A DNA stretch of 64,000 nt from Myxococcota bacterium (lineage in GTDB: Bacteria; Myxococcota; UBA727; JAHDBA01), in assembly GCA_020630615.1 (NCBI GenBank), contig JAHDBA010000005.1, forward strand, positions 38,709-102,708, given 5' to 3'. This document shows positions 17,514 to 21,408 of this stretch, in pieces. The notes under the pieces are model-generated. The model made no database searches. It was given only the letters and a program-made list of their open reading frames with translations, and was not told the origin of the DNA. The stretch's first letter is position 1. Every line of letters starts with the position of its first letter. The translations under genes were made by a program, and so were the position numbers.

Positions 17514-17551
17514 ATTCGTTTAGTATTCTTGACAGCTGGATAGAGGTAAAT

Positions 17552-18121
17552 ATGGCGTTCACATGGTTCAAGCGACTTTTCAGAGCTCAAGTATTGGGTG
17601 CACTCCAGAAAGGCCATCTGAAGGTGGTGGTGGACCCTAAAAAATATAAGTTGATCGAATATAAAATCACAGGTTCATGGTCCACCGAAGAACTTCAAAA
17701 TGCTGCATATCAAACATTTTTCCAGCTTAGTGAGCGATCTCGGCCTTATCGTTTGGAGCGTTTAGAAAGCATCAAACAAGGAGCCCGAGAATCGGCGTCT
17801 TTTACGGATGTGTTATTTAAACGGCGACAAAAATGGGTAGAACAGGCTGAAATGAATCTGCCCTCTGAAGAATTTCGTGGGCAAGCCGCACGCGGGAGTG
17901 TTCAGGTTTGGGTGAACGGAAATATGGACTTTCTACGGTGCAGTGTTGATGACATGGATCCAGAAGCAGTTTTACCCCTGGTACGCCACGCGCTTATCGC
18001 AGCCGAGAATCAATGTGAAGATCGATGGCGGCAGGTAATGCTCGAAGGTATGGACACTGACTACATGCTTGAAGGTCATGTCGAAGACCCCAGTGCTGCT
18101 ATCAATGAAGTGTCGGCTTAA
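17552..18121 (+). CDS. Hypothetical protein (189 aa)
   Basis: ORF with GAGGT RBS. No recognisable motifs. Located between clpP and the Cys-repeat giant. Confidence 0.45.
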   Translation: MAFTWFKRLFRAQVLGALQKGHLKVVVDPKKYKLIEYKITGSWSTEELQNAAYQTFFQLSERSRPYRLERLESIKQGARESASFTDVLFKRRQKWVEQAEMNLPSEEFRGQAARGSVQVWVNGNMDFLRCSVDDMDPEAVLPLVRHALIAAENQCEDRWRQVMLEGMDTDYMLEGHVEDPSAAINEVSA

Positions 18122-18254
18122 TTAAAAGTCTATAGAAATCAGCTGCATTCATCTTTATTCTCGATGAGAAGGGCTAAAAACATGCGTTCGTAATCAGACT
18201 TCGCTACTCTAAACATATGATACAAAATCATGCTGTCCAGAGTAGGTGTATGCG

Positions 18255-21200
18255 ATGTTAGAGCAACAAAAGGATCGAAGAAACCAATCACGAATAGCAA
18301 CCTCATCCTATATCGCTTTAATGCTTGTTATGGGTGTTGCGCCAAACCTCTATGCCATTTGTGGCGATGCTATCTTTGATGCAGGCGAAGAATGTGAAGA
18401 TGGAAATGCTCTCTCCAATGATGGTTGTTCTTCGACGTGTCAACTTGAATGGGAATGCGACAATCGTTTTATACGTCGTCCCAATGGTGTCAGTTCGGAC
18501 AATGCTCCAGCTCCTTTTGGCTCGAATGTTCTCGGTCGAACCTTAGATATCTCCTCGGTGACCGGCTATGTTCCCAGTGTTGACTTGAGTGGAGGTGAAG
18601 TCATCACCTACACGATGTCTGAAGATGTTCATACCAATGGTATTAACGTCGATAACCAGGTCAGTGGTTCGTCATTTTTTAGTGCAGCAGGGATTCAGAA
18701 TTTTGACTTGGTATTTCGCGACAGTGCTGGAAATATCTTGATGACCCTGAGTGGTTTAACCTTGGTCAACACGGACGGGCAACAAATCTTAAACTTTCCA
18801 GGTTATATCCTAAATGTTCGCTCCTTTGAGTTTCGAGTTCAGAGTATTTATACATCGTTGAGTTCTCGTGATGGTCAATGGAGCGACATCGGTCTCGCAA
18901 CCCATCATGAGTGCTGTGGGGATGGTGTGACCGGTGCCCTCGTTGATCCGCCAATCTCAGGTTTCCCTGTGGCCGAAACATGTGACGATGGCAATCGGTC
19001 CCGTGGAGACGGTTGTAATGATACATGCCAAGTTGAGGAATGTGGAAATGGTATTGTCGATCAAGGTGAGGGATGTGACGATGGCAACCTCACGCCTGGT
19101 GATGGATGCAATCAAGTGTGTCTTCAAGAGCTTTGTGGCAATGACTTTCTAGACGTCGGTGAAGAGTGTGACGACGGAAACAATATTGCGGGTGATGGTT
19201 GTTCTTCGATCTGCAACGATGAAATCTGCGGCAACTCTATCGTCGATGTTGGTGAAGAATGCGACGACGGTGCAACTATTAACGGTGATGGATGTTCATC
19301 CACCTGTGTACGTGAAATTTGCGGTAATGGTGTTCTCGACCCCGATGAGGAATGTGATGATGGCGGTGTCGCTTCGGGTGATGGTTGCAACGCCATTTGT
19401 CAGCTTGAGGACTGTGGCGATGGAAAAGTCGATGTCGGCGAAGCCTGCGACGACAATAACAATACGTCTGGTGATGGTTGTTCGAGCACATGTACGATTG
19501 AAGTCTGCGGTAATGGTGTCATCGATGCCAATGAGCAATGTGAAGATGGCAACACAGAACCTGGGGATGGCTGTGACGGCTTATGTCGCCTTGAAGCCTG
19601 TGGAAATGGGCGCGTTGATTTCGGTGAGGCGTGTGATGATGGAAATGCGCTTTCAGGTGATGGTTGTTCAGCAGCCTGCAAACAAGAAATCTGCGGCGAT
19701 GCGACAGTCGATCAAGGCGAAGCCTGTGATGATGGTAACACTGAGAATGGTGACGGATGCTCCGCAACGTGTGAGCGTGAAATCTGCGGTGACGGTACCG
19801 TTCATGTCGGTGAAGCGTGTGACGATGGTAACAATGCTGCGGGTGATGGATGCAATCCATTATGCCAGGTTGAAGAATGCGGAAACGCTCGCGTGGACTT
19901 CGGTGAAGAATGTGATGATGGAAACATTCTCGGCGGAGATGGTTGTTCAGCAATGTGTGCTCTTGAAATTTGCGGGAACGGAGTTTTAGATCCGGGTGAA
20001 GAATGCGACGATAGTGGGACAAGCGGAGGTGATGGTTGCTCTGCATCATGTACGACTGAAGTCTGCGGGAATGGAACCTTAGACTTGGGCGAACAATGTG
20101 ATGATGGGAACACGAGCGTGGGGGATGGCTGCTCCGACCTGTGCGGAATCGAAGCTTGTGGAAATAACAATCTCGATAGTGGTGAAAGTTGCGACGATGG
20201 CAATCTCATTCCGGGCGATGGATGTTCTCCCCTTTGCGGAATCGAAGAGTGCGGGAACGGCGTGCAAGATCTTGGTGAAGGCTGCGACGATGGCAACGAC
20301 CTTGATGGTGATGGCTGTTCTTCATTGTGTGTGCTCGAGTCATGCGGGAATGGAATCATCGACCCACTGGAAACCTGTGATGATAGCAACAACGAGGGTG
20401 GCGATGGATGTAGTGCAGGCTGCCAGCTCGAAGAATGCGGAAACACTTTTGTCGACGTAGGTGAGCAATGTGACGACGGCAATGTCACTTCGGGTGACGG
20501 ATGTGATTCAACGTGTGCGATTGAAGTTTGTGGTAATGGTATCTTGGATGATAATGAAAATTGCGATGATGGCAATGTCGATGCAGGAGACGGATGCGCA
20601 CCGGATTGTCTGCTTGAGGAATGCGGCAATGGAGTTCAGGATATTGATGAACTTTGTGATGACGGGAACACGTCGCCTGGCGATGGTTGTGATGAGAGTT
20701 GTAAGACCGAGCTTTGTGGTGATGGGATTCTTGATATTAATGAAGCTTGTGATGATGGTAATATTGTGGATAACGACGGATGCTCTTCGTCCTGTCGGAT
20801 TGAAAACCTATGTGGAAATGCCAACGTTGATGCAGGTGAGGAGTGTGATGATGGCAACAACGACAATGATGATGGTTGCTCGAGTGTTTGTGTTTTAGAA
20901 AACTGTGGCGACGGTACTCGAAACAACGGTGAGGGATGCGATGATGGAAATACCCTCGATGGAGATGGATGTTCGTCAACATGTCAACCTGAAGTCTGCG
21001 GTGATGGAACCTTGAATGCGGGAGAAGAATGTGACGATGGTAACATTCTTGACGACGATGGGTGTTCATCGACATGTGAACTGTCCTCAACGGAGGAGAC
21101 TTGCCTGATGGACAGCGATTGTTCGGAAGGATGTTGTAGCGAAGGCTTATGTTCGCTTGAGGCATGTCCCGAAATATTAGATGGCCCGGATTGGCCAGGG

Positions 21201-21332
21201 GACCCAGATTACCAAATCACCGGTGGGGTACATCACTGTCAGACCAGCTCGGGACAATCGTTACTCGTTCTCTGCTTCGCACTGCTTAGCCTTTTGAGTC
21301 GAAGACAACTTTTACACTTGGTCAATGCTTGA
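18255..21332 (+). CDS. Secreted protein built of ~23 tandem Myxococcus-type cysteine-rich repeats, with C-terminal sorting-type tail
   Basis: ATG at 18255 behind TAGGTG (track start 18246 is GTG). Hydrophobic signal region. Repeats of ~36 aa, CGNGxxDxGExCDDGNxxxGDGCSxxCxxE, consistent with TIGR02232-type repeats. C-terminus is HHCQTSSGQSLLVLCFALLSLLSRR. Confidence 0.7.
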   Translation: MLEQQKDRRNQSRIATSSYIALMLVMGVAPNLYAICGDAIFDAGEECEDGNALSNDGCSSTCQLEWECDNRFIRRPNGVSSDNAPAPFGSNVLGRTLDISSVTGYVPSVDLSGGEVITYTMSEDVHTNGINVDNQVSGSSFFSAAGIQNFDLVFRDSAGNILMTLSGLTLVNTDGQQILNFPGYILNVRSFEFRVQSIYTSLSSRDGQWSDIGLATHHECCGDGVTGALVDPPISGFPVAETCDDGNRSRGDGCNDTCQVEECGNGIVDQGEGCDDGNLTPGDGCNQVCLQELCGNDFLDVGEECDDGNNIAGDGCSSICNDEICGNSIVDVGEECDDGATINGDGCSSTCVREICGNGVLDPDEECDDGGVASGDGCNAICQLEDCGDGKVDVGEACDDNNNTSGDGCSSTCTIEVCGNGVIDANEQCEDGNTEPGDGCDGLCRLEACGNGRVDFGEACDDGNALSGDGCSAACKQEICGDATVDQGEACDDGNTENGDGCSATCEREICGDGTVHVGEACDDGNNAAGDGCNPLCQVEECGNARVDFGEECDDGNILGGDGCSAMCALEICGNGVLDPGEECDDSGTSGGDGCSASCTTEVCGNGTLDLGEQCDDGNTSVGDGCSDLCGIEACGNNNLDSGESCDDGNLIPGDGCSPLCGIEECGNGVQDLGEGCDDGNDLDGDGCSSLCVLESCGNGIIDPLETCDDSNNEGGDGCSAGCQLEECGNTFVDVGEQCDDGNVTSGDGCDSTCAIEVCGNGILDDNENCDDGNVDAGDGCAPDCLLEECGNGVQDIDELCDDGNTSPGDGCDESCKTELCGDGILDINEACDDGNIVDNDGCSSSCRIENLCGNANVDAGEECDDGNNDNDDGCSSVCVLENCGDGTRNNGEGCDDGNTLDGDGCSSTCQPEVCGDGTLNAGEECDDGNILDDDGCSSTCELSSTEETCLMDSDCSEGCCSEGLCSLEACPEILDGPDWPGDPDYQITGGVHHCQTSSGQSLLVLCFALLSLLSRRQLLHLVNA
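18910..21085 (+). repeat. In-frame ~108-nt tandem coding repeats (about 20-23 copies)
   Basis: The GGTGATGG(A/T)TG...TGTGA(C/T)GATGG pattern recurs with ~108-nt period, matching the 36-aa protein repeat. Confidence 0.7.
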
Positions 21333-21408
21333 TCTCAGGGCGATTTCGATAAAGTATGGAGGTGTGTCTTTCTGAGAAGAAGGGCTCAAGACATCGTTGG
21401 AGATTCAC

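Follow-up and report, generated by a model that had tools for sequence, protein, structure and literature searches.

What separates clpP from clpX, one of the most conserved gene pairs of bacteria, in a poorly sampled uncultured lineage, and how did the separation arise? The question is raised by a stretch of 64,000 nucleotides from a Myxococcota bacterium (GenBank assembly GCA_020630615.1, contig JAHDBA010000005.1, positions 38,709 to 102,708 of the forward strand), hereafter referred to as the window. In it, two genes stand between clpP and clpX, namely orf2, which encodes a protein of 189 amino acids (aa) designated ORF2, and a gene for a large Cys-rich repeat protein. An earlier interpretation made without database searches (the sequence-only reading) regarded both genes as a single recent 3.9-kb insertion into a conserved operon. 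The results presented here point to a different history: we consider it probable that the clpP-clpX interval holds two native genes originating from two old steps and that ORF2 acts with Clp. Overall, the locus represents an ancient variant of the clp operon with two layers, the inner one being an undescribed YbaB-fold family.

Organization of the clp Locus

According to the list of open reading frames (ORFs) and the Pfam and NCBIfam scans, clpP, orf2, the repeat gene, clpX, and lon are all located on the + strand. The clpP gene (16932-17513) encodes a protein of 193 aa matching PF00574 (277.5 bits) and NF001368 (314 bits, cutoff 249). After a spacer of 38 bp it is followed by orf2 (17552-18121), which has a GAGG ribosome-binding site and whose product carries a C-terminal half with the YbaB/EbfC fold. 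The repeat gene ends at 21332 and starts either with an ATG at 18255, giving 1025 aa, or with a GTG at 18246, giving 1028 aa. The start codon of clpX (21409-22632) is the ATG at 21409, with a GGAG at 21399-21402, and lon occupies positions 22780-25479. The interval 17514-21408 is the exact gap between the clpP stop and the clpX start, with a length of 3895 bp. These scans confirmed the order given by the sequence-only reading, with two genes between clpP and clpX and lon after clpX; the size of 189 aa was also borne out, whereas the 1027 aa given for the repeat protein was not exact. The absence of the trigger factor gene tig upstream, likewise stated there, was corroborated by a tblastn search, which found no tig anywhere in the 64-kb window.

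The three protease components showed the features of their families. The motifs ASMG, HQPHGG, and DRD, which provide the Ser-His-Asp triad, were read in the translation of ClpP, and its score against the TIGR00493 equivalog (304.7 bits) was just below the cutoff of 308.6. ClpX matched NF003745 (618 bits, cutoff 359) and TIGR00382 (611 bits, cutoff 371) and contained a C4 zinc finger (zf-C4_ClpX, 68 bits), the Walker A motif GPTGCGKT, and the IGF loop (AIGF in the translation). Lon matched TIGR00763 (827.6 bits, cutoff 608), Lon_C (296 bits), and LON_substr_bdg (126 bits); the start codon of lon is uncertain, with the alignment to other Lon proteins starting near residue 34. Among 5.8 billion proteins, the closest non-self ClpX was only 64-67% identical; thus, the genome of the window has no near relatives in the databases.

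As a baseline, we used 80 diverse genome loci, taken among the matches listed in the ClpX genome scan, with a ClpX identity of at most 63%. The clpP gene was located upstream of clpX on the same strand in 76 of them, and in 74 of these 76 (97%) the gap did not exceed 450 bp (median about 105 bp). In this count, L058, which has two clp sets, was corrected for. The tig gene was present in 69 of the 80 loci. The two exceptions were L055, with a gap of 636 bp, and L041, with 2.7 kb. Thus, the split of clpP and clpX is real and rare, but not unique. The adjacency assumed by the sequence-only reading is indeed the usual state, and its view of the interrupted arrangement as derived from the canonical tig-clpP-clpX-lon is in line with the order retained in Vulgatibacter (L095) and the same 74 comparators.

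The interruption in L041 (6643-11245), a metagenome-assembled genome (MAG) of Pseudomonadota KLAP84, is an independent one. Its order is tig-clpP, two genes, and clpX, and the insert consists of a gene for a 563-aa cation antiporter-like membrane protein with a C-terminal FHA-like region and a 292-aa FHA gene, on the opposite strand.

Distribution and Genomic Contexts of the ORF2 Family

In an exhaustive search by HMMER, which covered 1.8 billion representatives, 11 clusters were assigned to the ORF2 family, including that of the window itself. The best of the other clusters, P0123, shared 36% identity with ORF2 (E 2e-29). A word-indexed homolog search with ORF2 retrieved only the query, and a metagenome scan with a subset of the family alignment gave no match. 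The aligned members were 158-282 aa long and shared ten invariant columns, with the motif VP-E-F-G-A--G-V-V--DG.

The genomic contexts of ten distinct members, the window and nine others, were read and checked by tblastn, and nine of the ten sat in a clp cluster. Seven were counted as the clpP-orf2-clpX type. Besides the window, these were L081-84 and L085/86 with the order clpP-orf2-clpX-lon, L088 and L090 with clpP-orf2-clpX, L089, in which clpP-orf2 is followed by the contig end, and L087 (GCA_020627505.1), in which a C25/RTX gene, clpP, orf2, a gene for a 990-aa repeat protein, clpX, and lon follow each other. The remaining two cluster members had rearranged surroundings. In L091, orf2-clpX-lon is directly preceded by a small lipoprotein gene instead of clpP, and in L094 the order is clpP-clpP-orf2-FGE-sulfatase, with clpX inverted 3 kb away. 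The sole exception was L092/93 (cluster P0130), which has no clp gene nearby. Seven of eight gaps between clpP and orf2 fell in the range of -1 to 38 bp, the other, in L081-84, being 188 bp, and those between orf2 and clpX were 44-183 bp. With the hidden Markov model of the family, none of the 80 other clp loci was found to encode a member, and no tig was found in any ORF2-bearing locus.

The ClpP proteins supported the coherence of this group of loci. The window ClpP was 71-84% identical to ClpP of the other ORF2-bearing loci and at most 64% identical to ClpP of the 80 comparison loci. The ClpP proteins of the ORF2-bearing loci formed one clade, with distances of 0.08-0.25 within it and at least 0.31 to all others. 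Six substitutions, Y21W, T80A, A96C, L126H, Q130G, and Q132T, were common to the five ClpP proteins available in full length from these loci and rare (at most 3%) among 76 other ClpP proteins; A96C adjoins the catalytic Ser. The guanine-plus-cytosine (GC) content of the ORF2-bearing loci ranged from 45 to 70%. By ClpP, ClpX, and Lon distances, the nearest named outgroup comprised Vulgatibacter and MAGs labeled “Deltaproteobacteria,” which suggests that the ORF2-bearing clade is placed near the Myxococcota. The ORF2 family is an undescribed one that is specifically linked to clpP and clpX.

Two further observations were made on individual members. In L094 (3833-9412), the inverted clpX is apparently frameshifted and the first of the tandem clpP copies is in pieces of 143 and 78 aa; these frameshifts may be assembly errors. 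In the high-GC subgroup, one or two small lipoprotein-like genes precede the ORF2 homologs (L091, 3-86; L092, 2-130; L093, 35-199 and ~213-420), and the products of these genes in L091, L092, and L093 end in ...(P/A)MAY.

Age and Origin of the Intervening Genes

The hypothesis that a foreign 3.9-kb segment landed recently in a canonical clpP-clpX operon has two points in its favor: the operon is interrupted here and intact in 74 of the 76 comparators, and a direct repeat of about 30 nt, readable as an insertion scar, flanks the repeat gene. It is nevertheless highly improbable. The sequence-only reading itself had named in advance an interrupted arrangement shared by relatives across the phylum as the finding that would refute it, and the comparison of synteny revealed orthologous intervening genes in relatives. 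ORF2 orthologs hold the position between clpP and clpX across the whole clade, whose loci span the wide GC range given above, which argues against a single recent insertion. Similarly, a recent arrival of the repeat gene is contradicted by its ortholog at the same position in L087, since the Lon proteins of the two genomes are only 52% identical.

L087, with a GC content of 45%, is the closest relative of the window and its sister in ClpP distances (0.12). The identities between the two were 84% for ClpP, 62% for ClpX, 50% for the repeat protein, and 33-36% for ORF2. A recent transfer of the whole block from the C25 peptidase gene to lon between L087 and the window is excluded by the protein identities of 30-62%. 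The genes located further upstream of the C25 peptidase gave no match between the window and L087.

The composition of the interval, which the sequence-only reading had proposed to compare with that of its flanks, also failed to reveal a foreign origin. The GC content at third codon positions (GC3) was 0.426 for orf2 and 0.405 for the repeat gene, within the range of 0.35-0.50 of 38 other window genes, and the synonymous codon log-likelihood z values were -1.3 and +1.5, respectively; codon usage of both genes is thus native. The higher GC content of the repeat region comes from second codon positions, i.e., from amino-acid content. No integrase, transposase, or other mobile-element genes were present in the window according to the ORF list and Pfam, and searches against PHROGs and PADLOC gave no phage or defense matches. 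The nearest tRNA gene, that for tRNA-His, is 4.6 kb away and on the other strand. The internal repeats of the repeat gene are not the result of recent amplification, because they are 60-76% alike in DNA and Tandem Repeats Finder detected no tandem array. Among the signs of a genomic island or mobile insertion, the direct repeat flanking the repeat gene was the only one found.

This direct repeat consists of a copy in the spacer between orf2 and the repeat gene (18158-18188, + strand; TTCTCGATGAGAAGGGCTAAAAACATGCGTT) and a second copy in the spacer before clpX (21370-21398, + strand; TTCTGAGAAGAAGGGCTCAAGACATCGTT), which ends immediately 5' of the clpX GGAG. Their local alignment had a score of 28, reached by none of 2000 shuffles and the best of 210 spacer pairs of the window. 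Both copies hold the palindrome TTCT-N3/4-AGAA. The element was absent from L087. It may have arisen by duplication of part of the spacer that once joined orf2 to clpX, it may be the scar of an insertion, or the two copies may serve a common function in regulation or processing.

The sequence-only reading had also pointed to the lack of tig upstream. The absence is real; however, it is not local, since it extends to the ORF2-bearing loci of the whole clade. The other ORF2 lineages lack the repeat gene, and the window and L087 are sisters; therefore, the simplest history comprises two steps. In the first step, a gene for a two-part YbaB-fold protein would have been fixed directly behind clpP in the ancestor of an uncultured lineage, yielding clpP-orf2-clpX-lon; the lineage would also have lost the linkage with tig. 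In the second step, the common ancestor of the window organism and GCA_020627505.1 (L087) would have gained the gene for a secreted Cys-repeat surface protein at the orf2-clpX junction.

Fold and Sequence Features of ORF2

The AlphaFold2 (AF2) model of ORF2 based on the family alignment was confident, with a mean predicted local distance difference test (pLDDT) of 82.7 and a predicted template modeling score (pTM) of 0.71. In this model, residues 91-174 adopt the arrangement of a helix, three strands, and a long helix, which is that of the YbaB fold, and the structural neighbors were all YbaB proteins. At the sequence level the similarity was weaker. ORF2 passed the gathering score of PF02575 marginally (26.5 against 25.5 bits), eight of the 11 family members matched PF02575 weakly at E <= 0.01, and NCBIfam gave no match for ORF2. 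A profile of the C-terminal halves of the family matched Escherichia coli YbaB (1pug) with E 7.6e-6.

The first ~90 residues of ORF2 are family-specific and themselves conserved, with a helix, a hairpin, and two helices. Comparison of the N- and C-terminal halves by hhalign (probability 21%, E 0.001) gave a weak hint of internal duplication. The N-termini of the family are conserved and are hydrophobic and then basic, of the type M-x-F/L-G-x-x-F-K-K-K, as in MLGRLFGKKDKG, MGLFKKKKKS, and MAFTWFKRLFR. In addition, the alignment showed a conserved basic patch where the YbaB helix begins, as well as acidic tails that vary among the members. From the basic N-terminal arm and the basic patch, ORF2 may be predicted to bind DNA as a dimer.

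Proposed Role of ORF2

Its place in the clp clusters suggests that ORF2 acts with the Clp/Lon system. In the mechanism we prefer, ORF2 would be a DNA-binding dimer of the YbaB type, produced in parallel with ClpP, ClpX, and Lon, and would control the operon or link Clp proteolysis to the nucleoid. ORF2 may itself be a Clp substrate. E. coli YbaB is listed in a review table as a substrate of HslUV (ClpYQ) (PMC8138137), which is taken here as a lead only. We tentatively propose that the ORF2 family could be a hitherto unrecognized, lineage-specific component of the ClpXP/Lon module that either brings or anchors substrates, such as DNA-bound proteins, to ClpXP or exerts feedback on the expression of clp and lon while being degraded. 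If so, ORF2 would be the first Clp accessory factor on the YbaB fold.

The main alternative to a DNA-binding regulator is that ORF2 is a protein-protein accessory of ClpXP, such as an adaptor, an anti-adaptor, or a ClpP modulator. The YbaB fold would then serve as a dimerization scaffold, and the hydrophobic-then-basic N-terminal peptide would dock on the N-domain of ClpX or a pocket of ClpP. Several features fit this possibility: the tight coupling of orf2 to clpP, the conserved N-termini followed by variable acidic tails, and the rare ClpP substitutions near the catalytic Ser (A96C) and in one 10-residue segment, which might reflect co-evolution. Moreover, some YbaB-fold proteins, for example, mycobacterial EspL, are not DNA binders. 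On the other hand, ORF2 gave no Pfam or NCBIfam match to the known families of ClpXP adaptors (SspB, ClpS, RssB, and CpdR/RcdA/PopA), and E. coli YbaB, as seen in the alignment to 1pug, begins with MFGKGG, so that the N-terminal motif may be an ancestral basic arm of YbaB. Such an accessory function is rather doubtful.

It is also conceivable that orf2 and the repeat gene have no tie to Clp and persist passively, since their removal from an essential operon would damage the expression of clpX. The repeat protein, which has a signal peptide and disulfide-rich repeats, is located outside the cytoplasm. Unrelated genes are lodged at the same place in L041 and, as cicA, in Caulobacter (PMC8119881), and one ORF2 homolog lies outside clp loci. 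All this agrees with passive synteny. However, the linkage of orf2 has outlasted rearrangements of the cluster: in L094 it remains next to clpP despite the inversion of clpX, and in L091, where clpP does not directly precede it, it remains next to clpX-lon. Inertia would not predict this much, and the family is found essentially nowhere else. Passive synteny of both genes is therefore unlikely. It agrees well with the repeat gene, whose secreted product has no access to proteases of the cytoplasm, and less well with ORF2, which accompanies clp genes even in the rearranged loci L091 and L094.

Several points weigh against two old steps and an action of ORF2 with Clp. P0130 (L092/93) lies outside any clp context, and the ORF2 homologs of L091 and L094 adjoin either clpP or clpX but not both. 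The family is small, and sampling is thin. The repeat gene is known from two genomes only, and its age rests on one comparison. Finally, the sigma-70 scan detected no + strand promoter in the region, even upstream of clpP, and is uninformative on internal promoters.

A gene wedged between clpP and clpX across a lineage and still accompanying clp genes in rearranged clusters is a strong candidate for guilt by association. ORF2 could represent a novel factor in regulated proteolysis, either a regulator or an accessory protein, on a fold so far known for nucleoid binding. Our search of the literature found no report on a YbaB-like gene at a clp locus. The limits of this proposal are set by the lineage itself, which is uncultured and sparsely sampled, with 11 clusters.

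Expression of the Interrupted Operon

A scan for promoters and terminators revealed nothing resembling a terminator on the + strand from clpP to lon. The predicted RNA folds of the spacers were not significant (z -1.55, -0.69, and +2.2), and Rfam found nothing in the spacers. In the spacer before clpX, a weak TTGATC-N15-TAAAGT could be seen by eye. In L087, clpP and orf2 are 2 bp apart and the stop codon of the repeat gene lies 11 bp before clpX; such short gaps argue for coupling at the operon level. No meaningful alignment between the window and L087 was obtained for the spacers and the region upstream of clpP.

The five genes share a strand, their spacers are short, and no terminator was detected among them; most likely, therefore, they are co-transcribed from the promoter of clpP, to which weak internal promoters may contribute. 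The suggestion of the sequence-only reading that the expression of clpX depends on read-through may well hold, given the lack of a + strand terminator-like site and the 11-bp gap in L087.

The Repeat Protein

The product of the repeat gene contained 24 stretches matching TIGR02232 (685.5 bits, cutoff 20.8) and 19 matching DUF4215 (340 bits). It consists of a signal peptide, one repeat, a unique domain of ~150 aa, 23 repeats, and a Cys-rich end with a hydrophobic tail. The L087 protein, encoded between the ORF2 homolog and clpX, was 50% identical over 957 aa and shares the signal peptide, the one repeat, and the ~150-aa unique domain, followed by ~22 repeats and a hydrophobic Arg-rich tail. For the unique domain, no relatives were detected outside L087, the metagenome scan gave no match, and the single-sequence model (pLDDT 32.6) was useless. 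The tail reached no sorting-signal model, with no match to MYXO-CTERM (TIGR03382) at E <= 10, and the resemblance of the tails to MYXO-CTERM is visual only. A second, paralogous DUF4215/TIGR02232 repeat protein of 720 aa is encoded at 39307-41469 on the - strand, and its repeats are 37-43% identical to those of the large repeat protein; thus, the repeat family is native to the genome.

The locus indicates that a stress-protease operon can harbor the gene of a large secreted protein over long periods. The consequence for the expression of clpX would be either dependence on read-through or decoupling as in Caulobacter.

A separate observation concerns ClpX, which is unusually diverged in exactly the two lineages with the repeat gene. 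The ClpX of L087 (13678-14916) and that of the window, which differ far more than the two ClpP proteins do, are each as far from the other as from the ClpX of unrelated phyla.

Neighboring Genes

Upstream of clpP and divergent from it lies the metzincin-like gene noticed in the sequence-only reading (15605-16771, - strand; 388 aa). The zinc motif HExxHxxGxxH is present in its translation as HELGHVLGLGH, and its match to Matrixin was below the threshold (E 0.008). In L087, tblastn found no counterpart, and a 114-aa ORF occupies that place. Further upstream, a gene at 11806-15534 (+ strand) encodes a secreted C25-type cysteine peptidase of 1242 aa with RTX repeats (PF01364, 156 bits; PF00353, 89 bits). 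Its ortholog in L087 (4990-8778) was 30% identical over 1245 aa and has the same relative position upstream of clpP. The protein ends in a Cys/hydrophobic/Arg tail that scored 14.8 bits against MYXO-CTERM TIGR03382, below the cutoff of 15.85. The C25/RTX peptidase gene is context and not a part of the clp cluster.

Downstream, a predicted lipoprotein of 162 aa is encoded at 25482-25970 (+ strand), beginning 2 bp after lon. It had no Pfam match, and tblastn detected a homolog downstream of lon in L087 (31% identity, E 3e-24). The tRNA-His gene (26006-26081, - strand) was the sole Rfam find. In a more distant part of the window (48165-62295), there are five large co-oriented ORFs of 853, 948, 848, 391, and 1684 aa, almost without Pfam matches; the only one in this run was to CapC, a domain of capsule biosynthesis, in the N-terminal part of the protein of 948 aa.

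Comparison With Known Systems

The repeat protein resembles the Myxococcus-type cysteine-rich acidic repeat proteins (TIGR02232/DUF4215) in having a signal peptide and repeats of the form CGNGxxDxGExCDDGNxxxGDGCSxxCxxE. It differs from other proteins of this type in the ~150-aa unique domain between repeats 1 and 2 and in the location of its gene inside a protease operon.

Canonical YbaB proteins are ~100-110 aa long, consist of a single domain, and are encoded in the neighborhood dnaX-ybaB-recR. ORF2 departs from this architecture and context, with its 189 aa and its gene between clpP and clpX. Compared with YbaB/EbfC proteins (PF02575; PDB 1pug, 1j8b, 1ybx, 3f42, and 5yrx), it is about twice as long and has a conserved N-terminal extension of ~90 residues. 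On account of its length, extension, and context, ORF2 is a divergent and extended paralog of YbaB, not an ortholog.

Regulators and adaptors dedicated to Clp include ClgR/PopR in actinobacteria, CtsR in Firmicutes, and SspB/RssB; the genes of PopR and CtsR adjoin clp genes, and both proteins are degraded by Clp. As small accessory proteins dedicated to Clp, they provide an analogy for the putative role of ORF2. There is no kinship in sequence or fold with these regulators and adaptors, ORF2 being YbaB-like and not of the HTH_XRE, CtsR, or SspB type.

In the canonical tig-clpP-clpX-lon cluster of the E. coli type, also represented by Vulgatibacter incomptus (CP012332, L095), clpP, clpX, and lon have the same order and strand as in the window, with lon directly after clpX. 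In contrast, tig is absent from the window and from every ORF2-bearing locus, and two extra genes (3.9 kb) occupy the place of a gap with a median of ~105 bp.

The closest parallel to the split is the clpP-cicA-clpX arrangement of Caulobacter crescentus, in which an unrelated gene separates clpP and clpX, as in the window. Work of Osteras et al. in 1999 is said to have described cicA as a phosphotransferase gene read in the opposite direction, whereas both intervening genes of the window are co-oriented with clpP and clpX and tightly spaced, and their products are unrelated to CicA. In Caulobacter, cicA puts 1.1 kb between clpP and clpX, and the split lets sigma-32 induce clpP but not clpX (PMC8119881). 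The co-orientation and tight spacing in the window suggest coupling of the genes, not their uncoupling as in Caulobacter.

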